Of a stretch of 64,000 nucleotides of DNA, positions 10 to 27,594 are shown piece by piece. The notes beneath the pieces were generated by a model. It did not search any database and was not told where the DNA came from. It worked only from the letters and a program-made list of their open reading frames with translations. The translations under genes were made by a program, and so were the position numbers. The stretch's first letter is position 1, and each line of letters starts with the position of its first letter. The stretch comes from Candidatus Aminicenantes bacterium (GTDB lineage Bacteria; Acidobacteriota; Aminicenantia; Aminicenantales; Saccharicenantaceae). Where the stretch lies: the NCBI GenBank assembly GCA_963805045.1, contig CAWDTC010000025.1:42372-106371 (forward strand). The letters run 5' to 3'.

Positions 10-555
10 GTGCTTCCGGCCGGGCTGGCCAGGTCCATGCTGACGGCCGAGGCGGGCGACCGGGCGTTCGGCTTCGCCGTCGATGGCGCCGGCCAGGACG
101 TCCGCTTCCACCTCGAGGGGCGGACGTCCGGTTTCACGGCCGTCCTCGACGCCTATCCCTACAAAGGCCAGGGCGTCGCGATCCTGACCAACAGCGACAA
201 CGGCTTCCTCCTCACCGAGGAGATCCTCAGGGCCGTTTCGGCGGCCTACGAATGGCCCGACTGGAAGCCCCGGGAGCGCCCCCTCTTCCGGCTCGACCCC
301 TCGATCTACCGGCAGTACGTCGGCCGCTACGAGGTCACGCCGGATTACGCCCTCGACGTCACCACCGAGGACTATTACCTCGTCATCCGGCCGACCGGCC
401 AGGCTCCGACCAGGTTCTACGTCGAGAACCAGACCTTCTTCTTCTCCATCGACCCCTACGTGCGCATCCAGTTCGTGAGCGACGACAAGGGACGCGTGAC
501 GGGCCTCGTCCTCTGGCAGCAGGACTTCAAGCAGGAGGCGAGGAAGGTCGGCTGA
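10..555 (+). CDS. C-terminal fragment of a beta-lactamase/serine-hydrolase family protein (5' end lies outside the window)
   Basis: ORF is open at the window edge; the C-terminal region resembles class-C beta-lactamase-like hydrolases (VAILTNSDNG...); stop TGA at 553-555. Confidence 0.5.
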   Translation: MLPAGLARSMLTAEAGDRAFGFAVDGAGQDVRFHLEGRTSGFTAVLDAYPYKGQGVAILTNSDNGFLLTEEILRAVSAAYEWPDWKPRERPLFRLDPSIYRQYVGRYEVTPDYALDVTTEDYYLVIRPTGQAPTRFYVENQTFFFSIDPYVRIQFVSDDKGRVTGLVLWQQDFKQEARKVG

Positions 556-3145
556 GGCCGGCCGAGTCTTCAGGCCGGGCCGTCCGGCCCGGGCCCCTGC
601 CCCTCCCTGCTCCTGGACGAGGGACCCGCTGACCTCGAGGAAGTGCTCGACGACCTCCGGGTCGAACTGGGCCCCCGAGCAGCGGATGATCTCCTTGACC
701 GCGTAACGGTGGGACGACGCCTTGCGGTACGGCCGCTGCGAGGTGATCGAGTCGTAGGCGTCGGCTACGGCCATGATCCGGGCGCCGAGGGGGATCTCCC
801 GGCCCTTCAACCCGTCGGGATAGCCCGTGCCGTCGTAGTGCTCGTGGTGGGCCCGGACGACCTTGGCGATGTCCTTGAGCTCGATGACCGGGCGCAGGAT
901 GCTCTCGCCCCGCGCCGGGTGCTCCTTGATGAGGGCGAACTCCGCCTCCGTCAGCTTGCCCGGCTTGTTGAGGATGCTCTCCGGGACGGCGATCTTGCCG
1001 ACGTCGTGGAGGAGCGCGGCCAGCTCGAGGTCGCCCTTCTCCTTTTCGCTGAAGGCCATCCGGTCCGCGATCTTCAGCGAGAAGTCGGTCACCCGGGTCG
1101 AGTGGTGGCGGGTGTATTCGTCCTTCGCGTCGATGGCGGAGGCCAGGGACTTGACCGTGGACAGGAACAGCGAGCGCTGCTGATCGACAAGGTCGGAGGT
1201 CCGCATCTTGAGGTTCCGGTTGACCAGGGCCAGCTCGGATTCGACTGCGGCGGATCCGGAGGAGGGCCCGGATGCGGGCCTTGAGCTCGACCGAATCGAA
1301 GGGCTTGGAGATGTAGTCGTCCGCGCCGGCCTGCATGCCCTCGGCGAGCATCTCGGCGCCGGTCCGCGCGGTGACGAGGATGACGGGCATGTGCTTGAGG
1401 GCCGCGTCGGCCTTGACGGTCCGGCAGAAGGCGTGCCCGTCCATGCCGGGCATCATGACGTCGCAGAGGACGAGGTCGGGGCTCTTCTCCCGCATCAGGG
1501 CGAGCCCCTTCTCCGCCGAGGTCGCGACCTCGACGTCGAACTCGTCGCTGAGGAGCATCTTCATGAGCTTGAGGACCTCGGCGTTGTCGTCGATGGCCAG
1601 GATCAGGGCGTCGTGGGTCTTGGTAGCCTCGCCCGCCGGACCCTCGATGTCTACGTGCTCCAGGTCGACGAGCTGGAGTCGGTGGGCGTCGGCGACGATG
1701 TCCTGGACCCTCGGCTCCCCGGTGTCCGTCGTCCGCCGCTTTAGCCCGACGGGATGTTCTTCCTGGCGGCGGTCGAGGACGTCCTCCGGGAAGTGGCTCT
1801 CGCCCTTCAGCATGTCGACGATGAACCGGGAGCCCTTGCCGAGCTCGCTCTCGGCCCTGATCGCCCCACCGTGGACGCTGACGATCTCCCGGGCCAGCGA
1901 CAGCCCGATGCCCGTGCCTTCATGGGACCGCGACATCGACCCGTCGACCTGGGAGAACCGGTCGAAGATCGTTTCCAGCATGTTGGCAGGAATGCCGATC
2001 CCCGTGTCCTCGACGGCCAGGGTGACCGAACTGTCCTTGTCCTCGATGTAGACGGTGATCTTTCCCCCCTTGGGGGTGAACTTGAGGGCGTTCGAGAGGA
2101 GGTTGAGGATGACCTTCTCGAACTGGTCCGGGTCGACGACGAGCTCGACGTCGTGCGGCGGGTGCTGGAAATAGAGCTTGATCTGATTCTGGTCGGCCAG
2201 CGGCTTGACCGTCGACAGGAGGGAATTCGTGAACTCGACCAAATTTACTGGCTTGATCTTGAGCCGCATCTTCCCCTCCTCGAGCTTGGTCAGGTCGAGG
2301 AGGTTGTTGATGAGCTTGAGCAGCTTATAGCCGTTGCGCTGCATCGTCTCGAGGGTGTCCCTGAACTGGGCAGACAGCTTGCCCATCCTGTTCTCCAGGA
2401 TGGCCTTGAGAGGCGCGAGCATCAGGGTCAGGGGCGTCCGGAGCTCGTGGTTGACGTTGGCGAAGAACTGGGTCTTGAGCTCGTCGAGCGACTTGAGCTT
2501 GATGTTGGATTCCTGGAGCTTGGCCGTCGTCTCCTCGAGCTGGGTGCGGCTCCGGAGCTCGCGGCGGCGGGTGCTGTCCATCGAGTGCGACCCGACGGCG
2601 CCGACGATGATGATCGAGGTCAGGAAAAACAGGTTGTTGGTCACGAACCGCCACAGATCGAGGCTCTCGCCATTGAGGACGATGGGAGCCTGGCCGCCCG
2701 CGATCTTGAGAAAGCTCGGGACGGCATAAATGGCCCAGGTCAGGACATAAAGAAAGATGGCCTCGCGGAAGGCGAAGGGGATGACGACGATCATGCCCAT
2801 GACGATGATGTTCAAACCCTGGTAGTAGCTCGTGAGGAAACCACCCAGGATCTGGATCATGATGCCGATGCCGACGGCGTCCAGGATCACCATGGTCATG
2901 GCCAGGTTGAGAAAGCCGCGGTGGGTCTTGGTGCGTTTGGCGATGACAAGGAGCAGGAATTCCAGGGCGGCGACGGAAAAGCGGATGATGGCGAAGGTCT
3001 TGATATGCTGCGGCGTGTAGACCCAGTCCAGGAGCAGGAACGAGACGAACAGGATCATGCTGATGATGATGGCCAGCTTGACCCTGCCTTTCAGGTCGTA
3101 TTCCGTGTAAAGCCTTTCCTCGAACGGAGTGATGGTGTTAGGCAT
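527..3145 (-). CDS. Hybrid sensor histidine kinase: multi-TM sensor, HisKA/HATPase, REC receiver, C-terminal HD-GYP phosphodiesterase (frameshifted)
   Basis: ORF-track protein has an N-terminal polytopic membrane region, an H-box (ELRTPLT), HATPase (DTGIGIP...GTGIGL) and REC (ILAIDDN...DVMMPGMDG...KPF). Re-reading the minus strand at about 640-1250 in a -1 frame gives a clean HD-GYP domain (HDVGKIAVP...HHEHYDGTGYPDGL) that the listed frame replaces with Gly/Arg-rich junk. So there is a 1-nt frame break near 1250 and the 3' end is uncertain (stop at 527 or about 570). Confidence 0.7.
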   Translation of the reverse strand: MPNTITPFEERLYTEYDLKGRVKLAIIISMILFVSFLLLDWVYTPQHIKTFAIIRFSVAALEFLLLVIAKRTKTHRGFLNLAMTMVILDAVGIGIMIQILGGFLTSYYQGLNIIVMGMIVVIPFAFREAIFLYVLTWAIYAVPSFLKIAGGQAPIVLNGESLDLWRFVTNNLFFLTSIIIVGAVGSHSMDSTRRRELRSRTQLEETTAKLQESNIKLKSLDELKTQFFANVNHELRTPLTLMLAPLKAILENRMGKLSAQFRDTLETMQRNGYKLLKLINNLLDLTKLEEGKMRLKIKPVNLVEFTNSLLSTVKPLADQNQIKLYFQHPPHDVELVVDPDQFEKVILNLLSNALKFTPKGGKITVYIEDKDSSVTLAVEDTGIGIPANMLETIFDRFSQVDGSMSRSHEGTGIGLSLAREIVSVHGGAIRAESELGKGSRFIVDMLKGESHFPEDVLDRRQEEHPVGLKRRTTDTGEPRVQDIVADAHRLQLVDLEHVDIEGPAGEATKTHDALILAIDDNAEVLKLMKMLLSDEFDVEVATSAEKGLALMREKSPDLVLCDVMMPGMDGHAFCRTVKADAALKHMPVILVTARTGAEMLAEGMQAGADDYISKPFDSVELKARIRALLRIRRSRIRAGPGQPEPQDADLRPCRSAALAVPVHGQVPGLRHRREGRIHPPPLDPGDRLLAEDRGPDGLQRKGEGRPRAGRAPPRRRQDRRPGEHPQQAGQADGGGVRPHQGAPGAGREHPAPGHRAQGHRQGRPGPPRALRRHGLSRRVEGPGDPPRRPDHGRSRRLRLDHLAAAVPQGVVPPLRGQGDHPLLGGPVRPGGRRALPRGQRVPRPGAGRGRGPGRTARPEDSAGLSRPSSPPA

Positions 3146-6100
3146 GGGTGTTCCTCGCGCGAGCGACGACGACGTACCCCTGAGGGGGATCGCCGTAAGA
3201 CGGGATGATCCGCTCGATCTCCCAACCCGCTCCCTCCAGCAAGCCTTCGAGCTTCTCAGAATCGAAGAAGTCGAACGTCCCCGCCTCCTCTAGATCCACT
3301 AACGCCTGGGCGTCGTTGAGGAAGGAGCGGAGAGATTCGAGGAGAAGCGGCTTGGGCCAACTCGGCGGGAGGGCCTCCTCGGGCATGGTTTCTATCTTCT
3401 CGAGGAGCCGGGTGAATGGGCCGGAGGCGTCGGTATCGGGACGCATGCTCGACAAAACGAGCCTTCCTCCCGGCCTGATGATCCTCCTGACCTCGGCCAG
3501 GGTTTCGCCCGGATTGAAAATATAGGAGAGAACGAGGCTCATCAGGACCTTGTTGTACCAGCCCGCCCGGAGCGGGAGATGAAGGGTGCCCTCCAAGTAC
3601 CCGGGTAAGGCGAGTCTGCGGAGGGCGGGCTTCTTATTCGTCAGGCGCCGGACGTAGCGCGCGGCCAGGTTAAAATCGATGATCGTCCGGTACTCGTGGA
3701 GATCGAACTGCCTTTTCAACCATTCGTCGTACGCTGGGGAAATGGGCTCCCCCCTGAGGATTCTGTGGAGACGAGGCGAATAAGCTTTTTGGATCTTCAG
3801 GGCACTCTCTAGGGTCAGGTTCTCGATCTTGTCGGCCATCTCCTCGAAGGTCCCGACCTCGCCATCCAGAAATCGCTGGATAGGGAGGAAGCGGCTCAAC
3901 TCCATGTCGAGGCACAGGAGGTCGAGGCGGCCGGGCTCCTTGAGGGCGTCGTAACGGAAAACGAACTTCTGCCTGGCCTGCTCCATGGCATCCGGGATCA
4001 GATCGGCGACGGTGATCTGTGCGGGAAGCTCCCGGCCGCTCTCGAGGAGGTGTTCGACGAAATTGCCCGTCCCGCCGCCCAGATCGAGCAGCCGGTCCGA
4101 GGGCAGGAGCTCGAGGGCCAGGAGTTGGTCCTGCATCAGCTGCTGGTAATCGTCGGACATCGCCATGATGTCGAAGCCCAGGAGGTTGTTGTCGCCCACG
4201 AGATAGCGATGCCAGTAGGTCTGTCGGTTCTTGAGGTTCCGGGTCGGAAGCCTGTCTTTCTCGGCCCGGCGCATGGTCTCCATGTTCTTCCGGCTGGGCA
4301 GGACCGGCTGGATCATGGTCTTGTGAAGAAAACGATGGATCAGCGACGTGATCGTCCCGAACATCTGCAGGGCCTCCCTTGACGTCCGGGCATTGTGCCC
4401 GATGGGAACGGAGATCACCTCACGCGGGGCGTTGGCCTTGATGCTCATCACGTCGCGGATGAACTCGGCCCTGACCCAGTTGTCGTATTGTCCGTAGATC
4501 CAGGTTATCGGAATGTCGATATGGCGCATGTCCTCGCGGGCCTGCTCGAGCGTGGCCACGGAGTTCGCGACCCCGTCTCCGACATAGAAGTCGACATTGA
4601 CGAGGTTGCCCAGGACCGGCATGACGCCCAGTTTGATGCCGAGCTGGTAATGCTCCAGGAAATCCAAGCCGCAATTGATCCGGACCATGAGGTCGCGGAA
4701 TTCCGGCGTGCCCATGCAGGCGATCCAGTACTGGATGCGATGATGGTTCGCCTCGTCCCTGAGGACGATCCGAGCGTCCAGCGCCGAAAAAGAAAACGTC
4801 AGGAGGATGACCGAGCTGGCCCGGAGTTTGGGATTCAGGTCAAGCCAGTCCAGGATGGCGACGACGTCCGCGGCGCTCTGGGTGAAATTCGTATTGAGCA
4901 TCTCATATGGCGGCTCCGATGCCTCGGCGTCCTTGTGGCTTTCCCCCTTCTTGCGGATGCCGTCAAAACGGATGACCGCCAAGGGCTTTCCCAGACGGCG
5001 GAAGTTCTCGGTCAGGGTCAGGGCCAGCCCGAACAGAGTCTCCTTGGTCTTCCCGAAGGCCGGCGGGACGATGACAACCGGGACGGGCCTGTCGTCCAAG
5101 GGGAGCGATGAATTCAGAAGCCCGACGATCTCCTCACCCTGCCGGGTCTCGACCCGGAACACCTCCGGGGGCTTGAGAACCGGTTGGCCCGCTTCTGTCG
5201 CGGCAGGTCGGGTCGCCTGTCTCCCGGACGGTTCGTCGGGATGGAGCCCGTAATCAAGCTCGGGAGTCTGGACGGACTGAATGCTCATCCGGCCGATGCC
5301 GAATTGAACACCGTACTTCGCGGTGTAAAGGACTCCTTCTCCGGCCCGGGAAACGTAGCGGACTTCGCCACTCTCTTTCCAGAGGACCTGGTCGCCGTCC
5401 ATAATGGACACGGTGTCGAGGGGCGTCCCCTTCAGCAGGACCTGTGCGTGGGAGTCGGCGATGAAGCTGACCCCACCCGGACTGATGTCGGTGATGCGGC
5501 CGGTGATGCTGTTGTTGAAGGGCTCGGGGAGGGGGATCTCGACCCGGAGGTTGCCGTACGGACTGAGCCGCTTTTCGGTCCGCTTTTCCGAATAGAACAT
5601 GACCCGTGGGTAAAGGCAGGTCAGGTTCCGGCCATCCGGCGCGATTCGAGAGATCATCGTCTCGAAATTGTAAGTGGCGTAGCCGATCTGGAAGGAGACA
5701 AAGATGAGATCGGACGTCTTGAACCGGACGTTCAGGTCTTCCCCGGCGAAGACGCACGTCGACTGAGGCCGGACATCGCCGAACCTGAGGATCTCCGGGT
5801 TCCGGGATTGGGCCTGGACGACTGCGACCTCCGTCCCATTGCGCATGGCCTCGCGGATGAGGGACTCGATCTTGAAGGCGTCCGAGAACAGGACCATGTC
5901 CTCGGTCTTGAGGAACGGATACCGCGATTTGAGCCCGGAAAGGTCGCGGACCGTGACGTAATCCGAGAGGAAGTGAAGGAGAGAGCGGCGGCTCTCGTCA
6001 TCGATGGCCTTGAACTCGACGCCGACGCCTCCCTGGTCGACGTCGTGCCGGACAATCCGGCCCGTGACGGCATAATGGCGGCCATCGGGGAGGGTGATGT

Positions 6101-6674
6101 CGAGGGGCAGCGAGGCGCCTTCCGGAAAGAAGGACATGGTCCGGAGGAGCATCCCATTCTCGCTGAGGTTGACGACATGGGCTTCGTCGCTCCCGCCGGC
6201 CTCGATGCGGACATCCGGCAGCCCGTTGAGATCGACGCGCATCGAGGTCCGCTTCTCGCGCGACTTTTGGGCGATGAGGAAGCCGACCTTACGCCTGACT
6301 TCAGCGGGATCCTCGGGCTTTTCACAGATGGCATCGATCCGGCCGTAGCTGCCGAGTTCCGCGGCCGTGCCGTTCAGGGGGGAGTCCGCGAGGAGGACCT
6401 TGACGATTGAGTCCGATTTCCCGAGCATCTCATTGAGGAAACGGAAGAGCTCGGTGCCTTTCATCCGCGGGAGGTCTTCGTTGACGACGAGGGCGTCGAC
6501 CTCGGGGAGGGCCTTGATCAGCTTGATGGCTTCGATGCCGCTCGTCGCGGTGTGGACGGTATACTGTTCACGGAAAACCCGCTGGAGCTTTTCGAGGTAG
6601 CCCAGGTCGTCGTCGACGAGGAGAACAACGGGTTTTCCCGGACGTGCCTGTGTGCCTGCATCCGTCTGACTCAT
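3138..6674 (-). CDS. 1178-aa multidomain signalling protein: atypical REC - PilZ - PilZ - alpha/beta-hydrolase-like - class I SAM-dependent methyltransferase
   Basis: N-terminus is CheY-like (VVLLVDDD ... KP) but has Asn where the phospho-Asp is expected (ALVVNEDLPRMKG). Two PilZ signatures (RTSMR...NLSENG and DISPGG). A central alpha/beta-hydrolase-like segment with a nucleophile-elbow-like TFSFS, later GDG and GHN. C-terminal MTase motif I LLDLGGGTGNF and a post-I IIRPGGRLV. The stop overlaps the start of the downstream HK gene by 8 nt. RBS AAAGAGG is upstream of the ATG at 6674. Confidence 0.75.
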   Translation of the reverse strand: MSQTDAGTQARPGKPVVLLVDDDLGYLEKLQRVFREQYTVHTATSGIEAIKLIKALPEVDALVVNEDLPRMKGTELFRFLNEMLGKSDSIVKVLLADSPLNGTAAELGSYGRIDAICEKPEDPAEVRRKVGFLIAQKSREKRTSMRVDLNGLPDVRIEAGGSDEAHVVNLSENGMLLRTMSFFPEGASLPLDITLPDGRHYAVTGRIVRHDVDQGGVGVEFKAIDDESRRSLLHFLSDYVTVRDLSGLKSRYPFLKTEDMVLFSDAFKIESLIREAMRNGTEVAVVQAQSRNPEILRFGDVRPQSTCVFAGEDLNVRFKTSDLIFVSFQIGYATYNFETMISRIAPDGRNLTCLYPRVMFYSEKRTEKRLSPYGNLRVEIPLPEPFNNSITGRITDISPGGVSFIADSHAQVLLKGTPLDTVSIMDGDQVLWKESGEVRYVSRAGEGVLYTAKYGVQFGIGRMSIQSVQTPELDYGLHPDEPSGRQATRPAATEAGQPVLKPPEVFRVETRQGEEIVGLLNSSLPLDDRPVPVVIVPPAFGKTKETLFGLALTLTENFRRLGKPLAVIRFDGIRKKGESHKDAEASEPPYEMLNTNFTQSAADVVAILDWLDLNPKLRASSVILLTFSFSALDARIVLRDEANHHRIQYWIACMGTPEFRDLMVRINCGLDFLEHYQLGIKLGVMPVLGNLVNVDFYVGDGVANSVATLEQAREDMRHIDIPITWIYGQYDNWVRAEFIRDVMSIKANAPREVISVPIGHNARTSREALQMFGTITSLIHRFLHKTMIQPVLPSRKNMETMRRAEKDRLPTRNLKNRQTYWHRYLVGDNNLLGFDIMAMSDDYQQLMQDQLLALELLPSDRLLDLGGGTGNFVEHLLESGRELPAQITVADLIPDAMEQARQKFVFRYDALKEPGRLDLLCLDMELSRFLPIQRFLDGEVGTFEEMADKIENLTLESALKIQKAYSPRLHRILRGEPISPAYDEWLKRQFDLHEYRTIIDFNLAARYVRRLTNKKPALRRLALPGYLEGTLHLPLRAGWYNKVLMSLVLSYIFNPGETLAEVRRIIRPGGRLVLSSMRPDTDASGPFTRLLEKIETMPEEALPPSWPKPLLLESLRSFLNDAQALVDLEEAGTFDFFDSEKLEGLLEGAGWEIERIIPSYGDPPQGYVVVARARNTHA

Positions 6675-6856: not shown

Positions 6857-6886
6857 AATGTAGTAGATTCCGCGCCCGACTGTCAA
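6857..6886 (-). promoter_or_regulatory. Candidate sigma70 promoter (TTGACA-18-TACATT) for the REC-PilZ-MTase/HK operon, with a roughly 175-nt leader
   Basis: Minus-strand reading gives TTGACA (6886-6881), an 18-nt spacer and TACATT (6862-6857), in the AT-richer gap between the esterase stop and the 6674 start. Confidence 0.3.
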
Positions 6887-6909: not shown

Positions 6910-7821
6910 CTAGCGGCGGAAGCTCTCGCCGATGAAGGCCAGCCCATCGACGATGCCCGACCGCCAGTAGCTCCAGGTATGGCTGCCGTCGCGGACCCGG
7001 AACTCATGAGGGATCTTGCGGTCGGTGAGGAGGAGGTGCAGGGCGCAGTTCCCCCGGATCAGGAAGTCCTTGTCGCCGCAGTCGAGATAGAGCCGGACCT
7101 TCTTCAGCGATTCCTCGGGCAGGGTCTTGGCGAGCTCGAGCGGGCTGTATTGACGGAAATGCGGCGTCAGGCGGGCCTTTTCCGAGAGGCCGGCGCCGAA
7201 GACGGGGCCGAGGACCTTGTCCCACATGTCCTGCTTCATGGCCAGGACGTCGTCGTCCGTCCAGACCGCGGCGCTGAAGGCGGCGGCTGCCGCGAAGAGC
7301 TCGGGATGGCGCATAGCGTAGACGAGCGTCCCCCAGCCGCCCATGGACAGGCCCGCCACGCCCCGGAACTCCCGGTCGGGGCGGGTCCGGAAGGTCGCGT
7401 CGATGTGGGGGATGAACTCCTTGACGAACATGTCCTCCCAGCGGACCTTGTTCTGATGATCGTTCACGTACCAGGCGACCCCGCCGTCGGGCATGACGAT
7501 GATCATCGGCGGGAGGACGCGGTCGGCGATGGCCCGGTCCGCGGCCGGGCCGATCTCGCCGAACTGGACCCAGCCCGATTCGTCGTCCGTGTAGCCGTGG
7601 AGCAGGTACACGACCGGGTAGCGGCGGGTCGAGGCGGCGTAGTCCGGCGGCAGGTAGACGGCGTAGGCGACGTCGCGGCCGAGGACGGCGCTCGCCATGT
7701 GGAGCCCCTCCCGGACCTGGGCCCGGGCGGGCGCCGCGAGCGTGAAGAGCAGCAGCCCCGCGGCGAGGACGACGGCCGCCGCGGCCGTCATTTTCAGGAA
7801 GGCCCTTCTTGTCGATGTCAT
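6910..7821 (-). CDS. Tat-signal secreted esterase (putative-esterase / S-formylglutathione-hydrolase-like family)
   Basis: Start is the internal Met of the longer ORF: MTSTRRAFLKMTAAA... has a twin-arginine motif (RRAFLK) and an ...ARA cleavage region. Esterase motifs follow (HGYTDDE, GLSMGGWG). The ATG at 7821 overlaps the upstream gene's stop (ATGA). Confidence 0.8.
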   Translation of the reverse strand: MTSTRRAFLKMTAAAAVVLAAGLLLFTLAAPARAQVREGLHMASAVLGRDVAYAVYLPPDYAASTRRYPVVYLLHGYTDDESGWVQFGEIGPAADRAIADRVLPPMIIVMPDGGVAWYVNDHQNKVRWEDMFVKEFIPHIDATFRTRPDREFRGVAGLSMGGWGTLVYAMRHPELFAAAAAFSAAVWTDDDVLAMKQDMWDKVLGPVFGAGLSEKARLTPHFRQYSPLELAKTLPEESLKKVRLYLDCGDKDFLIRGNCALHLLLTDRKIPHEFRVRDGSHTWSYWRSGIVDGLAFIGESFRR

Positions 7822-8513
7822 GTCCCGCTCCTTCCGGGCTTCGCGGATTTCCTGTAGGTCAGGGAGATCCCGCCGCTCGAGGCCGTGTCGACGACGGTCT
7901 CGAGGTCCGGCCGGCTCCGTGCGTATTCGAGGAAGTCCTTGATGCCCTGCATGAAGCCCAGGCTGACGACGTTGTGGACGGCGAAACAGCCGCCGGCGGC
8001 GAGCTTCGGCAGGAGGGCCTTGAAGTAGTTCAGGGTCCAGTTCTTGTCGGCGTCGATGAAGACGAAGTCGAACGGGCCGGGCAGCTCCTGGACGAGCTCG
8101 TGGGCGTCGGCCAGGCGGGCGTCGATCCGGTCGTCGAGGCCCGAGGCCTTGAAGTTCTGCACGGCCCGGAGGTGGCGGAACTCGTCGATCTCGACGGTCA
8201 CGAGCGACCCGCCGGTCTTGCTCAGGGCCCAGGCCTGCCAGATGCCCGAGCGCCCGGTGGAGGTGCCGATCTCCAGGGCCCGGGTGTAGCGATGCTTGAG
8301 GATAAGGTCGTAGAGAAAGCGGCCGTCCGCCTCGGTCACGTTCTCCTCGCGCCACTGGTCCTTTTGGGAGTCGAGGAAGCTCCGGACCCGGGCGTCGAGG
8401 GCCGCGGCGTCGGCGGCCTGCGGGGACTGCCGCGGCGGGGCGGGGTTCGCGATGCAGAGGACGGGGAGGGCGAGAAGAAGGGTCCGGAGGGCGGCCGTCG
8501 TCCTGGCTGTCAT
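7818..8513 (-). CDS. Class I SAM-dependent O-methyltransferase (caffeoyl-CoA/catechol OMT family 3) with an N-terminal signal/anchor
   Basis: LEIGTSTGRS, FDFVFIDADK and GGCFAVHNV motifs; N-terminus is hydrophobic (LLLALPVLCIA); 4-nt overlap with the esterase start. Confidence 0.8.
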   Translation of the reverse strand: MTARTTAALRTLLLALPVLCIANPAPPRQSPQAADAAALDARVRSFLDSQKDQWREENVTEADGRFLYDLILKHRYTRALEIGTSTGRSGIWQAWALSKTGGSLVTVEIDEFRHLRAVQNFKASGLDDRIDARLADAHELVQELPGPFDFVFIDADKNWTLNYFKALLPKLAAGGCFAVHNVVSLGFMQGIKDFLEYARSRPDLETVVDTASSGGISLTYRKSAKPGRSGT

Positions 8514-8688: not shown

Positions 8689-8722
8689 GGAGGGACAGCC
8701 CCGCCGACGGGACTGCCCCTCT
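8689..8722 (-). terminator. GC-rich imperfect hairpin (GGAGGGACAGCCCC...GGGACTGCCCCTC) directly after the TPR gene stop
   Basis: Inverted repeat that starts 8 nt downstream (minus strand) of the stop at 8730-8732; related to the GGGAC-N-GTCCC palindrome family; no clear U-tract. Confidence 0.3.
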
Positions 8723-8729
8723 TGTCTTC

Positions 8730-10307
8730 TTATTTCTTCGCGACGGCGTCCTTGATGTCCTTGACAAGCTTCTTGTACTTCTCGGTCGAGAATTCCTTGT
8801 GCGTCGCGGCCCAGGTGTCGACGAACTCGACCGCCTTCTCCGCGTAGGGCAAGGCCTCCTGATACTTCTTCAGCTTGTACAGAATATTGGCGAGCGTGTA
8901 ATTGTTGAAATAATCCGAGGTGAGCTCGACGGCCTTCCTGGCGGCCTCGGACGCGCTCTCGAGGTTCATCCCCGCTTGCTTCTCGCCCTGCCTGCTCCAG
9001 AAGGAAGCGTAGCTCGCGAGGACGGACTGGTCGGTCCCGTTCTTTTTGATGAACTCCGGCCCGTAGGCGGCCAGCGCCTTGTCGGGTTTCTTGAGCTTCA
9101 AGTAGATGCCGGCCGCGGTCTGAAGCGTGTACCACTGTTCGGGCGGGGCTATCTTGACGGCCAGGTCGGCCGCGGCCTCGACGCTCTCGAGGTTCTTTCC
9201 CTGCTCCAGCCAGAAATTCGCGTAGCCGGTCAGGGCGTAGACCGAGTTCGAGACGTAGCTGTCGAGGAAGTCCTTGCCGTATTCCTCGTCGGCCTTGGCC
9301 GCGTCGCCCTTGAGGAGGTAGAGCTGGGCCAGGTTTTGGGCGTACTCCGGGTTGGGCGGGTATCCCTGGATCTCCTTGACCTTCTCGGCCAGCTCGAGGC
9401 CTTTGTCGACGGGCCCCTTGTCCTTGACGATCTTGTCGACGTAGGAGTTGAGCACGGAGGCGTCGTTCGGGTACTTGGCGATGTAGGTCTCGTAGAACTT
9501 CGTCGCCTCGGCTTTGGTCGCCTCGTCCCCCGCGGCGTAGTACTGGTAATAACTCCCGAGCATGGCGTAGGCCTGCTTGAGCGAGGGGGCTCTGAGGGTG
9601 CTTGGCGATGAAGGCCTTCATCGGCGCCGCATCGGGCTTCCGGCTGAAGACAGTCGACTGGGCCAGCTCGAATTCGGCGGCCTCGGTGTAGGGAACGGTC
9701 GCCTTGATATATTCGAAGGTGTAGTTCCCGGCCTTTCCCTCGGGGTCGAGGGCGATGACTTTCTTGTAGAGCTCCTGCGATCTCGCCGTCAGGTCCTCCT
9801 TGTACCGGCTGCCGCACTTCTGGGCGAGCTTGAAGAGGACCTCGACGTTCGTCGGCTCCTTGGCGTAGCGGGCGTTCAGGGCCAAGAAAGTGTCTTCACC
9901 GGCAGGGCTTTCTTGAGCTTCTCCATGGTGCTTGTCGGCCGGCGGGCCGTAGCCGACGATCCAGTCGACCTCGTTGCCGTCCTTGTCGACGAGGAGATCG
10001 GTCGGCGTGGCATTGACATGCCGAACTTCTCGTAGATCGCGTCCCCGATCTTGTCGCCGCGGCTGGCGCGGTAGACGATGAAGTTGTTGTTGAGGAAATC
10101 GGCGTACTTGGGATTGTTGTAGAACTGCTGGACCAGCAGTTTACAGCCCCCTCAGCCACTCGAGTAGAAATCGATGAGGATGAGCTTGTTGTTCTTTTTC
10201 GCCTGGGCCAGCGCCTCGTCGAAGGGGCCGCTCAGGACCCGGGCCGTTTGGGCCGAGGCGAGCGAGGCGAGGAGGAGCAGGCCGGCGATCGGACTGAGTT
10301 TCTTCAT
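8730..10307 (-). CDS. Secreted thioredoxin-like (CxxC) / TPR-repeat protein, interrupted by frame breaks and one in-frame stop
   Basis: RBS GGAGG, then ATG at 10307 and a signal peptide (MKKLSPIAGLLLLASLASAQ). A thioredoxin-like block LILIDFYSS(G*G)GCK follows, where the expected WCGxC motif carries a stop. TPR-like repeats continue across ORFs 9896-10159, 8608-9885 and 8730-9563 in different frames. Confidence 0.6.
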
Positions 10308-11438
10308 GCGGGCCTCCTTGTCCTTCCGGACGGGCTCTCCGGGCCATCATACAATGAAAGGAAATGCCGTTGCAACCCAAAAACGATCCCGGGCGCAACG
10401 GAGCGCGACGGGGAAGCCCTCAACCTCAGTATCCCGTCCCCGTCCGTCCGGACCTTGCCCTTGAAGACCCGGTAGGCATAGATCGTGTACCAGACGACGA
10501 GCGGCATGCCGACCAGGGCGATGACGAGCATGACCTTGAGGGTCAGGGCGCTCGACGAGGCGTTGGTGATGGTCAGGCTCAGCGCCGGGTCCGTGGCCCG
10601 GACGAGATGGGGATAATGGACCGCACCGACGGTCCCCCATAGGCTCAGGAAGAAGGTCGAGGAAAAGAGGAAGGCCCGGCCGTCCTTCCCCTTCTTCAGC
10701 GCGGCCAGGATGAGGCCGAGCGAGGCCCAACCCAGCACGGCGAAGATCCAGGCCGGGACCCTCTTTACGGCGCCGGGGAGATAGGCCCAGACGGCGAGGT
10801 ACGAAACGAAGAAGGCGCCCATGGCCACGGCGACAAGGGCCTTGGCCGCCTTGCGGGTCCTCTCCTGGAGCTCGCCTTCCGTCTTGAGCGCGGCCCATGT
10901 CGCGCCGTGGAGGAGGAAGGCGGCCAGGCCGAGGAGCCCGAAGACGAGGGGCAGCGGCCGGAGCAGGGTGAAGAAGCTCGCCCGCGTACTCCATGCGCGC
11001 ATCGAGGGGCACGCCGCCGACGACGTTGCCGAGGGCGACGCCGAAGAGGAGCGCCGGCAGGAAGCTCGCGCCGACGAAGACCGCCTCCCAGAATTTCCTC
11101 CGCGGCGTGTCGTGGGCCCGGAACTCGAGCGAGACGGCCCGGAGGATGAGGGAGAAGAGGACGAGCATCAGGGCCAGGTAGAAGCCGCTGAAGACCGTGG
11201 CGTAGGCGTGCGGGAAGGCCGCGAAGAGGGCCCCGCCGCCGGTCAGGAGCCAGACCTCGTTCCCGTCCCAGACGGGGCCGATCGACCGGACGAGCGCCGT
11301 CTTCTCGCCCTCGTTCCTGGCCAGGAACGGCAGGAGGACGCCGACGCCGAGGTCGAAGCCGTCGAGGACCGAGTACCCGGCGAGGAGGACGCCGACGAGG
11401 ACGAACCAGATGTTGCGGAGAAGGTCCCAGGCGCCCAT
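10304..11438 (-). CDS. cydB: Cytochrome bd ubiquinol oxidase subunit II (frameshifted)
   Basis: N-terminus MGAWDLLRNIWFVLVGVLLAGYSVLDGFDLGVG (RBS AAGGAGG) in ORF 10347-12071; C-terminal part ...WYTIYAYRVFKGKV in ORF 10304-11002. One frame break lies at about 10900-11000. Confidence 0.75.
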
Positions 11439-12822
11439 CACAGCCCTCCTTGCGGTGAACCATGGGGGACAGTCCCCCCGGGAGGGGACTGTCCCTCTCT
11501 TTCTTCCGGGGGAGCGTCCGGACCCTGCCGGACCAGCCGGAGGATGACGGAGACGCCGGCCGCCGCGATGAGCGCGTAGACCGCGGCGAAGAGGACGAGC
11601 GAGAACAGGATCTGCCCCGCGGGCACGACGACGGAGACGGCGTCCGCCGTCCTGAGGACGCGGAAGACCGCCCAGGGCTGGCGGCCGACCTCGGCCGCGA
11701 ACCAGCCGAACTCGTTGGCGAGGTAGGGGAGAGGCACGGCCAGGACGAGGAGCCGGAGGTACCAGCGCGGGACGGCCTTCCCCTTCCGGGCGAGGAAGGC
11801 CGCGCCCGGGACGGCCATCACGATGAACAGCAGGCCGAGGAGGATCATCAGGTGGTATCCGGCGAAGGGCAGGAGGACGGGCGGCCGCTCGTTCTTGGGG
11901 AACTCCGAGAGCCCCCGGACCTCGGTGCCCGTGTCGAAACCGACGAGGAAGCTGAGAAGGCCTGGGATGCGGAACGGCGAGACGCGTCGTCTCGGCCTTC
12001 TCGTCGGGGATGCCGAAGACCGTGAACGGCGCCCCGGTCCGGGTCCGCCACAGGGCCTCGAAGGCGGCCATCTTCTCCGGCTGGGTCCGCGCGACCTGGA
12101 CCGAGTGGGCGTGGCCCGAGCCGAGCTGGAGGACCGACGCCGGCGACGAACACGGCCAGGGCCGTTCTCAGGAGGAGCCCGGCCTTGTTCCCGCGCCCTG
12201 TCCTTGAGGAGGAGCCAGGCGGCGATGGCCGCCGCGACGAGCGAGCCCGTGATCCAGCCGCCGAGGACGGTGTGGACGAAGCGGACGACGGTCGACGGGT
12301 TGAGGGCGGCCCGGCCGAAGTCCGTCAGGCAGGGCCCGGCCCGCCTCCATCCGGAAGCCCGCCGGCGTCTGCATCCAGGAGTTGGCGATGATGATCCAGA
12401 CCCCGGAGAGGTGGGAGGCGAAGAAGACGAGGAAGGCCGAGACCCAGTACATCTTCGGCGAGACGCGGCGCCGCCCGAAGACGAGGATGCCCAGGAAGAC
12501 GGATTCGAGGAAGAAGGAGAAGACGCCTTCGGCCGCGAGCGGCGCGCCGAAGATGTCGCCGACCGTCCGCGCATAGGCCGACCAGTTGTTGCCGAAGGCG
12601 AACTCGAGGGCGATCCCGGTGGCGACGCCCATGACGAAGACGACGCCCAGGATCCTGACGAGGAAGCTCGAGACGTCCCGGGCCAGTTCGTCCTTCTTCC
12701 GGAGAGAGCGGGATTCCAGGATGAGGATGACGAGCGTCAGGCCGAAGGTCGTCGGCGGGAAAGAGGAAGTGGAAACCGGCGGTCAGGCCGAACTGTAGCC
12801 GGGCCAGAAAGACCGGGTCCAT
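11438..12822 (-). CDS. cydA: Cytochrome bd ubiquinol oxidase subunit I (multiple frame breaks)
   Basis: N-terminus MDPVFLARLQFGLTAGFHFLFP (RBS AAGGAGG, ATG at 12822). Q-loop region GIALEFAFGNNWSAYARTVGDIFGAPLAAEG is in ORF 12168-12632. C-terminus is in ORF 11438-12574. The stop TGA overlaps the cydB ATG (ATGA). Confidence 0.75.
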
Positions 12823-23544: not shown

Positions 23545-24914
23545 CTAAAGGCCGTACTTCTTACGCCGCCGCCAGAGGGTGGCCTGGTCGATGCCGAGCA
23601 CGTCCGCCGCCTCCTGGAGGGAGTCGCGTCCTCGCCAGGACGCGCCGGATGTGCTGCTCCTCGATCTTGTCCAGGCTCACGCGGTCGCCGAGCCGGACCT
23701 CGGCGCCGCCGGGAACGACTCCCGCCGGCAGGCATTCGATGCCGACGCGGTCGTCGCGGCAGAGGATGGCGGCGCGCTCGACAGCGTTGCTCAGTTCGCG
23801 GACATTGCCCGGCCAGGCGTAGCCGGCCAGGGCGCGAAGGGCCTCGTCCGTGAAGCCCAGGTACGAGCGGTGGTTATTGCGGGCGTGAAAGGCCAGCAGC
23901 CGTTCCGCGAGCCCGGCAATGTCGCCCGGCCGCTCGCGGAGGGGAGGGATCTCGATCGGGATGACGTTCAGACGGTAATAAAGGTCCTCCCGGAAGCGGC
24001 CGTGCTTGACGGCGTCCTCGAGGCTCGTGTTCGTGGCCGCGATCAGCCGCACGTCCGCCTTCCGCGTGACCGTGTCGCCGACGCGCTCGTATTCCCGGTC
24101 CTGGACGAAGCGCAGGAGCTTCGGCTGGAGGGCGAGGGGCAGGTCGCCGATCTCGTCCAGGAAGAGCGTCCCGCCGTCGCTCGCGGCGATCCGGCCGGGG
24201 TTGTCGCGGACGGCGCCGGTGAAGGCGCCCTTGACGTGGCCGAAGAGCTCGCTTTCGAGCAGCTCCGGCGAGAAAGAGGGGCAGGAGATCAGGCTGAACG
24301 GCTTCCCCGCCCGGGGGCTCCAGGAATGGATGGCCCGCGCCAGGACCGTTTTGCCCGTGCCGCTCTCGCCGCGAAGGAGGAGCGTCGCCTCGGATGCCGC
24401 GGCCTGGCGGGCCAGGGCCGCCGCCCTCTGCATGGCCGGGTTCGAACTCGAAAAATCGACCTCCGGACGCTGGCGGCCCAGGTCCTCCTGTAGGGCGGCG
24501 ACCTTCTGCTCGAGCGTCCGGACCTCGAAGACCTTCCGGACGGCCAGGTTGATCTGGGCCGGCGTGAACGGCTTGGGGATGTAATCGGTCGCTCCCCGCC
24601 GCATGGCCTCGACGGCCGTATCGATGGAGGCGTAGGCGGTGATGACGATGATCTTGAGCCAGGGCGTCGCCGCGAGGAGGGGCGGGATGAGGTCGAGGCC
24701 GTCGTCGGTGCCCAGCCGGAGGTCGACGAAGGCCAGGTCGAAGGAACGGCGTGCGGCCTCGGCCAGGGCGTCCTGGAAATTGCTGACCGCCGATGACCTT
24801 GTGGCCTTCCGTCTCGAGACAGAGGGCCAGCGTCTTGCGGATGTTGAGCTCGTCGTCCACGACCAGGACATGGAGGGACGGGCTCACGGCCGGGATGCTC
24901 TTTTCGGGCCCCAT
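23545..24914 (-). CDS. Sigma-54-dependent (NtrC-family) response regulator: REC - AAA+ sigma54-activation domain (GAFTGA) - Fis-type HTH; frame breaks near both ends
   Basis: N-terminus MGPEKSIPAVSPSLHVLVVDDE (ATG at 24914). AAA+ with GESGTGKT and GAFTGA. C-terminal HTH ...EAADVLGIDQATLWRRRKKYGL* read in a shifted frame (stop at 23545). Confidence 0.8.
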
Positions 24915-24937
24915 GGGACGATCCGCTTCGGGCCCCA

Positions 24938-24966
24938 AGCATAGCGGACATCCGGGGGAAAAGCAA
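24938..24966 (-). promoter_or_regulatory. Candidate sigma70 promoter TTGCTT-17-TATGCT for the response-regulator gene
   Basis: Minus strand: TTGCTT (24966-24961), 17-nt spacer, TATGCT (24943-24938), about 25 nt upstream of the ATG at 24914. Confidence 0.35.
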
Positions 24967-25105
24967 CACGCAGCCAAGCGATGGACGGGGCATGTCCTCC
25001 CACGGCAGACAGGGCCTTCCTCGGGCTGGAAGGTTCCCATTTGCCGTGTTTCGGACTACAATAAGGGTGTCAAAGTCAGGACATGGGTAATCCCCCGGAG
25101 GCGTC

Positions 25106-25879
25106 ATGACACTCAAGAAGAAACTGACTTTGGGCCTGGGGTTCTTGTTCCTCATCATATTCTTTTTGGGGATTTTCTGCTCCTACCATATCGGCAGCCT
25201 CTCGCAGGACGCCGAGAACATCCTGAAAGACAATTACAAATCACTCGTCTACTCCAGGAACATGATCTCGGCCCTCGAGGACATGCGGACGGCCGTCAGC
25301 AGCATTATTTTCAACGTGCCCGAAGCTAAGGAGACATCAGACTACTACCTGAAGCTCTTTGAAGCCGGCCGGATCGAATTCGAAGCCAATCTCAAGTCCG
25401 AGAACGGCAACATCACCGAGATCCATGAAAGCGATTACGTGGCCGCGGTCAACCGGGATTATGTTCTGTACGCAAGCCTCTGCCAGCGCCTCGTCAAGGG
25501 GGAGGGCGGCCGCGCGCTCTATTTCAATGAATACCAACCCGCCTTTGAAAAACTCAGGCACGCCATCATCAGCATCAACGACGTTAACATGCAGGCCGTC
25601 GAGCGGAAAAATCAGATCGCAAAGCAGGATTCGGCCAGGACCATCAGCCTTATGGCCGGCATCGGGGCCTTTTGCCTGCTCCTGGCGTTCGGCTATTTTT
25701 GGTACTTCCCGGTTTACATCTCCAACTCGATCAGCTATCTTGCGGACAGGATGAAGACGCTCCTGAAGAAGTCCAACATCGTCCTCGATATCAGGACGGA
25801 CGACGAAGCCTTCATCGTCTTGCAGGGCATCAACCTGCTTGAGAACAAGCTGGACGTCAAAGACAATGGACAGGCCTAG
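25106..25879 (+). CDS. Orphan membrane-anchored sensor-domain protein (two TM segments, no output domain); paralog of the HK sensor domain
   Basis: MTLKKKLTLGLGFLFLIIFFLGIF...ENILKDNYKSLVYSRNMISALEDM aligns with the HK N-terminus ...DVILRENYRSVIACQQMKEALERI. A second TM is near the C-terminus. RBS GGAGG. The gene is visibly lower in GC than its flanks. Confidence 0.6.
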   Translation: MTLKKKLTLGLGFLFLIIFFLGIFCSYHIGSLSQDAENILKDNYKSLVYSRNMISALEDMRTAVSSIIFNVPEAKETSDYYLKLFEAGRIEFEANLKSENGNITEIHESDYVAAVNRDYVLYASLCQRLVKGEGGRALYFNEYQPAFEKLRHAIISINDVNMQAVERKNQIAKQDSARTISLMAGIGAFCLLLAFGYFWYFPVYISNSISYLADRMKTLLKKSNIVLDIRTDDEAFIVLQGINLLENKLDVKDNGQA

Positions 25880-25896
25880 AGGCCTGCGGATGGATT

Positions 25897-27201
25897 CTAA
25901 AAGGTGAAGAGGGCGTCCACGCTGAATGTCAACTGATCTTGATGGCCGCCGTCGAAGGCCGCGCGGTCAGAGTGGTCGTAGCGAACTTCAGGCCGGAACA
26001 GCACATGCGAGAGGATATGGTCTTTTGGGAACGGCTTGATCGCCATGCCCATGGTTGCCTCACGGTAGTCGGCGCTGACGGGCGCACCGGTGGAAAAGCC
26101 ATTGGCGGCGTCTTTGTACCACTCCAGCCGGGTGTTCAGTGTGAAGTGCGTATCGATCGCGAAGCTTACGTAGCCAGCCACGCCACCCCACTGCTTAACA
26201 CCGTCCGGTAAGCCCGGGATGTGCGGCGCGACGACGTAGTCAACGCCCAAGCCGAGGCTGAATTTGTCAGTGACCTTGTGGGTCATAACCAAGTCCAAGG
26301 CGGTCCACCAGTCGCTGTTGTCGCCCGGAGGCAGATTCGTTCCGACGCCCGCCGGGAACTCCGGGCCTTCCGTCATCACGAAAATGACGGAAGTCTTGTC
26401 GCTGGGCGTATAGATCACGCGGCCCAAGAAGTCCAGGGAATCGTTAGCGTCGCGCGTCGACTGGTTCCAGCCGCGCGTGAAGCCGGCGTCAAACGTCCAC
26501 TGGCGGTTAAGCACGACGGTGGCTAATACGCCCGTCTGCGTGCCAGACTCGGCATAGAGAAACTGATAACTGTAAGAATAAAGTGCCCTGGCCGGATCAC
26601 CGAAAGCCCCGTAGATGTTAGCGCTGAACTGCTCGAAACCGGCCAGCTCGATCCATTTGCCCACGCGGAGTCGAAGCGGCAAGCCCGGGAGGGTCACGTC
26701 CACATAAGCTTGGAGAAGGTCCCATTGATTGCGCCCGGTCTGCGTATCCATCATGCCGTTCGAGTGGATGAACGCCGCATCTGCGCCATAGATGCCTTCC
26801 CCGTGGAAACCCACGTTAAATGCCTTCTTGGTCGGATCGACCGTGCGCTCGATATTCAAACTGATCTTGTCAAGGATGACCGTGTTCTTGAAATTGTTAT
26901 ATCCGATGTAGGTCGGGCCGGGACTGTCAGGCGCGGAGAGGTCGTAAAAGTAACCGCCTTGAGCATAGCCGTAGATGTTGATCCTGGCCTTGTTCAAAGG
27001 CCCAGCTATTCCCCCCTCGGCCAAAGCCGTCATCAGCGGCCCCGGTGTCGGCACGGTCGTGGTCGGCGGACTTGCTTCCTGGATCTTTTCCTTGTCCGAT
27101 GTCGCTGCCGGTGCATTTTGGCCGGCGCGCAATGGGATATTGATCCAAGCGGCAAGGAGCGCACAGCTGACTGCGGCAATCCCGAATTTAACGACTTTCA
27201 T
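25897..27201 (-). CDS. Outer-membrane beta-barrel protein (porin-like), with a signal peptide
   Basis: RBS AAGGTGA then ATG at 27201: MKVVKFGIAAVSCALLAAWINIPLRAG. Alternating amphipathic strands; C-terminal ...SVDALFTF (terminal Phe). Confidence 0.6.
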   Translation of the reverse strand: MKVVKFGIAAVSCALLAAWINIPLRAGQNAPAATSDKEKIQEASPPTTTVPTPGPLMTALAEGGIAGPLNKARINIYGYAQGGYFYDLSAPDSPGPTYIGYNNFKNTVILDKISLNIERTVDPTKKAFNVGFHGEGIYGADAAFIHSNGMMDTQTGRNQWDLLQAYVDVTLPGLPLRLRVGKWIELAGFEQFSANIYGAFGDPARALYSYSYQFLYAESGTQTGVLATVVLNRQWTFDAGFTRGWNQSTRDANDSLDFLGRVIYTPSDKTSVIFVMTEGPEFPAGVGTNLPPGDNSDWWTALDLVMTHKVTDKFSLGLGVDYVVAPHIPGLPDGVKQWGGVAGYVSFAIDTHFTLNTRLEWYKDAANGFSTGAPVSADYREATMGMAIKPFPKDHILSHVLFRPEVRYDHSDRAAFDGGHQDQLTFSVDALFTF

Positions 27202-27413
27202 GGGTGTCACCTTGGTTAAAGGATGTGCGATCTCTTCCGGATTCGGTTGCGACGGTCGAGCGACTATCATCAATCCGCTGCACGATTTGCGAGAACTGAC
27301 GGTCGAGGATATGCACGACTGTATTTCCTATGGGACGGCTGGCTTTCTGGATGTTTGTTTTTGATTTCATGGATTTAAGGGGGCTTGGCGTTTTTTTCCG
27401 AGAGACCGGATAG

Positions 27414-27542: not shown

Positions 27543-27594
27543 GGCGGCCTTCATCGCCGCCACGAGCTTACTTATTAAGCTTGTTTCGTTCGAA

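Follow-up and report, generated by a model that had tools for sequence, protein, structure and literature searches.

A PilZ-fused hydrolase/methyltransferase paired with a kinase/HD-GYP protein in Candidatus Aminicenantes: a candidate c-di-GMP module

When a sensor kinase, a cyclic di-GMP (c-di-GMP) phosphodiesterase and an enzyme fused to c-di-GMP receptor domains are encoded side by side, do they form one circuit, and on what would that circuit act? This question is raised by two overlapping genes on the reverse strand of a 64,000-nucleotide (nt) stretch of contig CAWDTC010000025.1 from Candidatus Aminicenantes (the window). Gene A encodes a 1178-residue protein with regulatory domains in one half and a hydrolase and a methyltransferase in the other; gene B encodes a hybrid sensor histidine kinase, called as an open reading frame (ORF) of 872 amino acids (aa). 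An earlier note on this DNA had described the two ORFs and their 8-nt overlap, which were found as stated, and had read them as a phosphorelay and c-di-GMP circuit with a methylation/demethylation output. Here, the domains and predicted folds, the conservation of motifs and of the gene pair, and the wider superfamily with its gene contexts were determined computationally. On balance we lean slightly towards the view that the locus is a self-contained two-gene c-di-GMP operon in which a PilZ-gated LuxD-like hydrolase/methyltransferase acts on a fatty-acyl or lipid carboxylate. We are confident of one part of this, the c-di-GMP module of kinase/HD-GYP protein and PilZ-gated enzyme, and tentative about another, namely an acyl-thioester or lipid as substrate, with formation of a methyl ester.

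The gene pair and its regulatory domains

Homologues of gene A in a large protein collection fall into more than 120 clusters, with full-length members of 1165–1203 aa, 63–96% identity and the same Pfam set; the named members are nearly all Candidatus Aminicenantes. A scan of species-representative genomes detected relatives in 103 genomes, from which 80 loci were retrieved, and the 72 full-length orthologues taken from these loci (down to 48% identity) were used for motif counts. The five-module fusion is genuine and its motifs are no chance pattern, since they are invariant or nearly so in these 72 proteins. A tblastn search with the intact kinase of the closest relative (locus L002) showed that, wherever the DNA extends far enough downstream, gene A is directly followed by a full-length kinase orthologue (51–80% identity, residues ~8–847), so that the neighbourhood analysis suggested in the earlier note supports co-conservation of the pair. 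Among the gene B orthologues extracted, 63 of 65 are single ORFs of 800–1000 aa. The junctions seen most often between the two genes are overlaps, of 8 nt at 25 loci, of 14 nt at 11 and of 4 nt at 3. In the window the TAA stop of gene A shares 8 nt with the ATG of gene B (junction sequence GAGGAAcacccATGCCTAA), and a Shine-Dalgarno-like GAGGAA lies 5 nt 5' of that ATG; the overlap indicates probable translational coupling of the two genes. It is extremely unlikely that the five-module protein or the kinase/HD-GYP combination was produced by assembly errors fusing neighbours in an indel-rich contig. Several window genes, gene B among them, are indeed frame-broken, but independent assemblies from many studies carry both gene A (1165–1203 aa) and gene B (820–980 aa) as single ORFs. 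The artefactual fusion of gene A is thereby refuted, while that of gene B is real in relatives and its window copy alone is broken.

Variation around the pair was seen at a few loci. At L003/L004 (13536–14396) the partner gene has 286 aa and consists of the kinase membrane domain only. We rejected it as an alternative partner and regard it as a strain-level truncation, because a locus of the same species (L053, 8719–11280), with 100%-identical flanking genes, has the full kinase-receiver-HD-GYP protein. Two metagenome-assembled genomes (MAGs) each hold two distinct gene A loci on separate contigs (L027 and L029, both MFD05942.bin.2.296; L044 and L050, both CSMAG_2559), which could be due to paralogy or to strain mixing in the bin. 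No gene A homologues were found on annotated plasmids.

Of the five modules proposed for gene A, Pfam recovers the receiver, both PilZ domains and the methyltransferase, and the hydrolase stays below threshold; a sixth segment at aa ~241–360 had been missed. The two PilZ domains stand out clearly (PF07238, 69.1 bits over two stretches against a cut-off of 22.5; 27.5 bits for the second domain alone), and both carry the motifs for binding c-di-GMP, RxxxR and [D/N]xSxxG. In the first domain R142, R146 and G174 are kept in 72/72 orthologues, as is N or D at position 169, and S171 in 69/72; in the second, R365, R369, D396 and G401 are kept in 72/72. Gene A is thus a predicted dual-PilZ c-di-GMP effector. 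The segment between the two domains (mean identity 63%) occupies the position of PilZN/xPilZ in YcgR-like proteins and had no Pfam match at E ≤ 10, and its hhalign probability was below 1% against either PilZ domain or the receiver. It was therefore rejected as a divergent PilZ or PilZN domain, given a probability of 67% in the control alignment of the two PilZ domains with each other. It also occurs in a separate PilZ protein at locus L092, described below.

The N-terminal domain retains a fold-level match to REC (Pfam Response_reg, 32 bits; 37 bits as an isolated segment), although its acceptor pocket is degenerate. The acceptor column holds Asn in 46 orthologues, Asp in 13 and other residues in 13, and the complete pocket was found in 1/72. 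The window protein, with Asn65 and Ala96, lacks the canonical set of a phosphorylatable REC domain (acceptor Asp, acidic pocket, Thr/Ser and Lys). Judged by these residues, the gene A pseudo-receiver cannot be a phosphorelay target, and the relay into gene A that had been proposed finds no support. The domain may instead be a module for docking, possibly to the partner kinase, or for dimerisation.

The hybrid kinase nature of gene B is borne out by Pfam (HisKA 60 bits, HATPase_c 102 bits and its own Response_reg 98 bits), and the His of HELRTP, the receiver Asp of DVMMP and the Lys of KPF are kept in 63/63 orthologues. Its sensor is an all-membrane domain of about six transmembrane (TM) segments without a large periplasmic part. 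At E ≤ 0.1 the window protein has no listed match to MASE8 (PF20968); orthologues and outgroup kinases have precomputed matches marked as weak, and the precomputed match of the L088 kinase is free of that mark. The HD-GYP domain that had been assigned to the 872-aa protein is present in the DNA, but out of its frame: the motifs LHDVGK and HHEHYDGTGYP were found by three-frame translation, and the called ORF ends in ~240 residues of Arg/Pro/Gly-rich, out-of-frame translation with no domain match. The HD, HHE and GYP motifs are kept, in frame, in 61–63 of 63 orthologues. In L002, where gene A is 96% and the DNA ~92% identical, gene B is one intact protein of 857 aa (MASE8-HisKA-HATPase_c-REC-HD_5).

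The frameshift in the window is most likely an assembly error. The HD-GYP frame runs without a stop codon to window position 1, on account of indels in the G/C-run tail at ~560–610, next to a convergent beta-lactamase/DUF3471 gene that ends at 555. One point weighs against this explanation: the insertion site at ~1245 is no homopolymer, so a real mutation there is possible. A programmed frameshift or a separate HD-GYP gene is unlikely, given the single ORFs in 63 of 65 orthologues, the HD-GYP frame without a stop and the adjoining genes, which are broken too. The broken genes of the window suggest many indel errors in the contig, with widespread pseudogenes being less likely, and similar frame breaks were seen in several long-read "MFD" MAGs among the relatives. 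In the window, the genes for a TPR protein, cydB and cydA (8718–9792, 10433–11426 and 11516–12761, all on the reverse strand) align to their orthologues as two fragments each, which lie in different frames, and all that a 1437-aa ORF at 41074–45387 (reverse strand) carries is a PHO4 fragment of 46 residues, at its end.

Taken together, these features agree with the c-di-GMP circuit that the earlier note had read in the pair, with a putative HD-GYP phosphodiesterase in gene B and a predicted dual-PilZ enzyme in gene A. We infer c-di-GMP binding, phospho-activation of the HD-GYP domain, the sign of regulation and the substrate. Gene B would sense a membrane-associated cue and autophosphorylate; the phosphate would move to its own receiver and, by analogy with RpfC/RpfG, switch on the C-terminal HD-GYP domain, making gene B a probable kinase-controlled phosphodiesterase. 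Hydrolysis of c-di-GMP by this domain would then be read by the PilZ domains of gene A, altering the activity of its hydrolase-methyltransferase.

Table 1. Features of the gene A/gene B locus (window coordinates)
Feature	Position	Strand	Description
Gene A	3138..6674	-	1178 aa; pseudo-receiver / PilZ / unassigned segment / PilZ / LuxD-like hydrolase / S-adenosylmethionine (SAM) methyltransferase
Receiver-like domain	6285..6632	-	aa ~15-130; pseudo-receiver, Asn65 at phospho-acceptor position
PilZ domain 1	5955..6263	-	aa ~138-240; R142xxxR146 + N169xS171xxG174
Unassigned conserved segment	5595..5954	-	aa ~241-360; invariant GYATYNFETM; between PilZ1 and PilZ2
PilZ domain 2	5280..5594	-	aa ~361-465; R365xxxR369 + D396xS398xxG401
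LuxD-like alpha/beta hydrolase	4305..5159	-	aa ~506-790; probable triad Ser628 (TFSFS) / Asp731 / His760
Class I SAM methyltransferase	3141..4154	-	aa ~841-1178; ~120-aa helical insertion after motif I
Gene A/gene B start/stop overlap	3138..3145	-	8 nt, ATGCCTAA
Gene B, called ORF	527..3145	-	872 aa
Gene B, in-frame part	1246..3145	-	~6-TM membrane sensor (MASE8-like in orthologues); HisKA 2273-2476; HATPase_c 1814-2134; receiver with Asp 1268-1603
Frame break	1236..1250	-	one extra nt at ~1245 compared with L002, uncompensated: CGCAGTCGAATCC vs CGCA-TGGAATCC; pairwise alignment and three-frame translation
HD-GYP c-di-GMP phosphodiesterase domain	~652-1146	-	other frame than kinase in window; PF13487 HD_5, E 2.7e-44
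Gene B 3' tail	556..651	-	G/C-run region, several indels relative to L002 (~560-610)
Promoter-like site	6857..6886	-	TTGACA-18-TACATT; AT-rich 235-nt region upstream of gene A; consensus scan

The promoter-like site upstream of gene A, a pattern match only, has 10/12 consensus matches and is the best of its region, where 3 sites were found against 0.7 expected. An Rfam scan of the window returned no RNA element, c-di-GMP riboswitches included. The region of the two genes (2001–6000) has a GC content of ~0.60, below that of its flanks.

The catalytic half of gene A and its substrate

Mean identity among the orthologues is higher in the two catalytic domains (75% and 71%) than in the regulatory domains (54–60%), and structure prediction was applied to both catalytic domains. 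By two independent methods the closest structure to the hydrolase is LuxD (PDB 1THT), an acyl-acyl carrier protein (ACP) thioesterase/acyltransferase, with 269 of 293 residues aligned at 15–16% identity and Ser, Asp and His in register. The match to the LuxD-type Pfam family Acyl_transf_2 (PF02273, residues 539–745) reaches 18.7 bits against a cut-off of 20.3, and that to the NCBIfam LuxD model (NF052253) 19.9 bits against 420; a PF02273 match is precomputed for some gene A homologues. Because both scores lie below the curated cut-offs, the hydrolase is best described as LuxD-like in its predicted fold and as no LuxD orthologue. A Ser-Asp-His triad had been proposed with the Asp of "GDG" (Asp700) as acid. 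Ser628 and His760 stand, but the acid is most likely Asp731 (GQYDNW), since in the sequence alignment S628 falls on Ser114 and D731 on Asp211 of LuxD. Among the 72 orthologues S628, D700, D731 and H760 are invariant or nearly so, and Asp700 and Asp731 are both invariant.

Several class I methyltransferase models of Pfam match gene A, the matches being split between a motif-I part at 863–908 and a distal part at 1002–1078. The fold is Rossmann-like, motif I (DxGxGxG) is present, beta-2 is followed by an acidic residue, and D864, G866, G868, G870, D891 and D923/E925 are invariant or nearly so. Its likeness is to small-molecule enzymes of the UbiE/Coq5 type and not to CheR, and gene A had no Pfam match to CheR or CheB_methylest. 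NCBIfam matches of gene A were all sub-threshold (DVU_1556, BioC, UbiE and LuxD models), and apart from 1THT a profile search of the PDB gave just receiver domains and generic methyltransferases.

The LuxD-like fold, the small-molecule type of the methyltransferase and the lipid and ACP genes near distant relatives favour a substrate of fatty-acyl or lipid nature. In one plausible scheme, an acyl chain would be off-loaded from an ACP or coenzyme A (CoA) thioester or from an ester, and the product then methylated, for example to a methyl ester. The specific methylation/demethylation output of the earlier note is not supported by this comparison, the hydrolase being LuxD-like rather than CheB-like and the methyltransferase UbiE/Coq5-like rather than CheR-like. 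Distant members, moreover, have as neighbours MMPL lipid exporters, a methyltransferase of CMAS type, or a set of acyl-AMP ligase, ACP and radical-SAM enzyme.

A related possibility is a reversible methyl-ester switch, in which a carboxyl methyl ester, placed by the methyltransferase on some protein or metabolite, is erased by the hydrolase and the PilZ pair sets the balance. Such writer/eraser pairs exist in CheR/CheB and LCMT-1/PME-1, and alpha/beta hydrolases may be methylesterases, as are BioH and PME-1. Both catalytic centres of gene A are intact and always fused, and its two PilZ domains could permit reciprocal gating. The next-best folds after LuxD are feruloyl and cinnamoyl esterases, which cleave methyl and ethyl esters; this also counts against the acyl off-loading that we favour. 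We nevertheless consider the switch unlikely. The best hydrolase match is to an acyl-ACP thioesterase, with CheB_methylest and CheR absent from the Pfam matches, and the neighbours of the methyltransferase are small-molecule enzymes. The minimal members of the superfamily (~830 aa) have one PilZ domain, so reciprocal gating by two is not ancestral, and the gene contexts are related to lipids and not to chemotaxis or protein modification.

The hydrolase and methyltransferase could also handle a protecting group as BioC and BioH do, the free carboxylate of a dicarboxyl-ACP being methylated for elongation and later demethylated, with c-di-GMP gating the flux. In biotin synthesis BioH/BioC and BioG-BioC likewise combine an alpha/beta hydrolase and a class I SAM methyltransferase on one carrier-bound carboxylate, and BioG-BioC esterase fusions are known. 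Gene A has weak NCBIfam matches here (BioC, 29.8 bits; BioH, 13.3 bits), and the JGI automatic names of distant members include "pimeloyl-ACP methyl ester carboxylesterase". These scores are, however, far under the equivalog cut-offs (185 and 207 bits, respectively), gene A has no biotin context and biotin genes were seen in none of the neighbourhoods examined. For a cofactor pathway, one would not expect PilZ domains and a sensor kinase as obligate partners, and we know of no c-di-GMP or two-component control of biotin synthesis. We regard this explanation as very unlikely, and keep to an acyl or lipid carboxylate as the tentative substrate.

Superfamily members and genomic surroundings

At E ≤ 1e-3, an exhaustive HMMER search with the hydrolase-methyltransferase module (aa 500–1178) retrieved 777 representative proteins, of which 322 also passed E ≤ 1e-30; the superfamily comprises at least 322 clusters at 50% identity. 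Many members are only 31–41% identical, with the module at their C-terminus. The superfamily occurs in Acidobacteriota/Aminicenantes, Planctomycetota, Myxococcota (MAGs labelled Nannocystis; Bradymonadales) and Spirochaetia, and public records give its members automatic names only, such as "PilZ domain-containing protein" or "UbiE/CheY-like". Their N-termini form a nested series. Proteins of ~830 aa consist of part of the mid segment, PilZ, hydrolase and methyltransferase; those of ~1030–1080 aa gain the first PilZ domain and some of ~1150–1200 aa the receiver. In the ~830-aa class the single PilZ domain has the RxxxR...[D/N]xSxxG signature in 105 of 109 proteins.

The gene contexts of these distant members recur. 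At three loci with ~830-aa proteins (L085, L086 and L087) an MMPL/RND lipid exporter accompanies a hybrid kinase with the order membrane domain-HisKA-HATPase_c-REC-HATPase_c, and L087 has a CMAS-type methyltransferase in addition; in this class the MMPL exporters sit between the enzyme and kinase genes. A kinase of the L085 type begins 1 nt downstream of the enzyme at L088 (P0134, 1034 aa) and L090 (P0223, 1199 aa), and a homologous one 4 nt downstream at L091 (P0131, 1067 aa). The system is split at L092 (6147–11775), where a 282-aa protein made of PilZ1, mid segment and PilZ2, which aligns to gene A residues 216–416, lies 6 nt upstream of the enzyme (P0189, 733 aa), and the enzyme gene is overlapped by a MASE8-type hybrid kinase. 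Directly downstream of P0145 (1199 aa, L089) are an acyl-AMP ligase, an ACP and a B12 radical-SAM enzyme, and near P0127 (1151 aa) are a ketoacyl-ACP synthase (KAS) III, a type III polyketide synthase (PKS), an acyl-CoA dehydrogenase and a GDSL lipase. The outgroup kinases are homologous to gene B (BLASTP, 30–36% identity over 430–720 residues, membrane domain included), and for this reason we take PilZ, hydrolase-methyltransferase and MASE8-type hybrid kinase as the deep conserved unit. The HD-GYP output of the kinase is Aminicenantes-specific; elsewhere a second ATPase-type domain (HATPase_c-type in the outgroup MASE8 kinases) takes its place. Extra receiver-GAF-kinase or receiver-ATPase proteins were observed beside the MASE8 kinase at L085 (14553–16235), L086 (15617–16493), L090 (1379–3776) and L092 (4709–5782).

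This recurrence of enzyme and kinase raises a further reading, which we consider quite unlikely: the PilZ-hydrolase-methyltransferase would be the synthase of a lipid-derived methyl-ester signal, diffusible or membrane-resident, or of an envelope lipid, and the adjacent MASE8-type kinase its receptor, with the kinase HD-GYP in Aminicenantes feeding back on the synthase via c-di-GMP. The two genes are adjacent over four phyla, even where the kinase has no HD-GYP domain, a ~6-TM all-membrane sensor suits hydrophobic ligands, and MMPL exporters lie between the two in the ~830-aa class. There is a precedent in Ralstonia, where one operon encodes the methyltransferase PhcB, which makes 3-OH fatty acid methyl esters, and the kinase PhcS, which senses them (PMC8578825, PMC11960443). 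The likeness to PhcB/PhcS is, however, a literature analogy by description, adjacency is equally explained by a kinase that regulates the enzyme rather than senses its product, and no exporter adjoins the Aminicenantes pair. If true, the reading would imply an ancient, Phc-like multi-phylum loop of lipid signalling or homeostasis in which c-di-GMP gates synthesis and which the Aminicenantes kinase closes directly through its own HD-GYP domain. Regulation of the enzyme by the kinase through c-di-GMP is the reading that we retain.

The genes upstream of the pair in the window were considered as part of the module and rejected. Their synteny (cydAB, a 51-aa ORF, the TPR gene, a Methyltransf_3 protein, and an esterase and/or HpcH aldolase) is limited to a subclade of at least 64% identity and is not family-wide, and they were hence taken as neighbourhood. 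Directly upstream of gene A are a PF00756 esterase (6913–7725) and a Methyltransf_3 O-methyltransferase (7848–8462), both on the reverse strand, whose orthologues in L001/L002 have signal-peptide-like N-termini. A second pairing of esterase and methyltransferase thus adjoins the fused one; it is kept only in the ≥64% subclade, sometimes with an HpcH/HpaI aldolase. The 51-aa ORF between cydB and the TPR gene (10155–10307 on the reverse strand; 6731–6886 in L003) has a signal-peptide-like N-terminus and no Pfam match, and is 65–100% identical over many Aminicenantes loci. No MMPL or CMAS genes were found near the Aminicenantes pair or within the window. Farther away, GC content falls to 0.59–0.62 at 24001–28000, compared with ~0.68 for the window; a sigma-54-activator response regulator (23561–24871) overlaps the start of this stretch and an OmpL-like beta-barrel porin (25897–27273) lies inside it. 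An ORF at 57718–59226 on the forward strand has a deoxyhypusine synthase match (PF01916, E 5.6e-66).

Known systems and biological meaning

Each part of the locus is of a known kind: enzyme-fused PilZ effectors, hybrid kinases, REC-HD-GYP proteins, LuxD-like hydrolases and class I methyltransferases. PilZ domains are fused to, or gate, an enzyme in the cellulose synthase BcsA, in Alg44 and in Myxococcus PixB, which is a PilZ-PilZ-acetyltransferase. In contrast to these, the output of gene A is a LuxD-like acyl hydrolase with a SAM methyltransferase, and not a glycosyltransferase or acetyltransferase; it has two PilZ domains, the unassigned segment and a pseudo-receiver, and is cytosolic, outside any secretion machine. 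In a PilZ survey, a methyltransferase is mentioned only with MapZ-CheR1. That system of Pseudomonas aeruginosa resembles gene A in that c-di-GMP read by PilZ controls a SAM-dependent methyltransferase (PMC12564702; bioRxiv 10.1101/814665). MapZ, however, is a separate single-domain protein acting in trans on CheR1, which methylates a chemoreceptor protein, whereas the PilZ domains of gene A are in cis and its methyltransferase is of small-molecule type and fused to a hydrolase.

Gene B finds its counterpart in RpfC/RpfG of Xanthomonas, where a histidine kinase controls an HD-GYP phosphodiesterase through receiver phosphorylation (for RpfG-type regulation see bioRxiv 10.1101/2021.11.05.467447). 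It differs in uniting kinase, receiver and HD-GYP in one polypeptide, in its MASE8-like multi-TM sensor and in its coupling to a PilZ effector enzyme. With LuxD, a myristoyl-ACP thioesterase/acyltransferase, the hydrolase shares the register of its triad and a similar nucleophile elbow (xxSxSA), but it is embedded in a signalling protein, and no luxCABE genes were seen. In the Ralstonia Phc system, too, the gene for a methyltransferase that makes fatty-acid methyl esters shares an operon with those for a membrane sensor kinase and for receiver proteins (PMC8578825, PMC11960443), and the receiver-ATPase-type proteins beside the kinase at outgroup loci recall the latter. This comparison is one of published descriptions, in which no PilZ or c-di-GMP gating is mentioned for Phc (PMC8578825, PMC11960443, PMC6989110) and PhcB figures only as a protein with a methyltransferase domain (PMC6989110).

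Literature searches that combined PilZ with methyltransferase/hydrolase, Aminicenantes with c-di-GMP, and PilZ with LuxD/MMPL returned nothing relevant. What appears new is therefore the PilZ-gated hydrolase/methyltransferase and its pairing with a MASE8-type kinase, of which we found no description in the searchable literature. The claim that no such system had been described holds to that extent; the architecture is nonetheless no one-off and belongs, as one branch, to a large superfamily spanning several phyla.

Among the enzymatic outputs known for c-di-GMP, polysaccharide synthases, motility brakes and transcription factors predominate. With a PilZ-gated acyl-hydrolase/methyltransferase, the modification of small molecules or lipids would join them, and the evidence suggests that c-di-GMP controls a chemistry that had not been recognised before and that probably involves lipids. 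Aminicenantes are an uncultured lineage widespread in sediments. The pair is highly conserved among them (48–96% identity), and with c-di-GMP eraser and reader in one operon it would provide a compact model of local c-di-GMP signalling. Culturable hosts may exist among the Nannocystis-labelled and other Myxococcota homologues. As the family is large, bears generic names and nearly always has one type of membrane kinase as partner, a single characterisation would annotate many genes.

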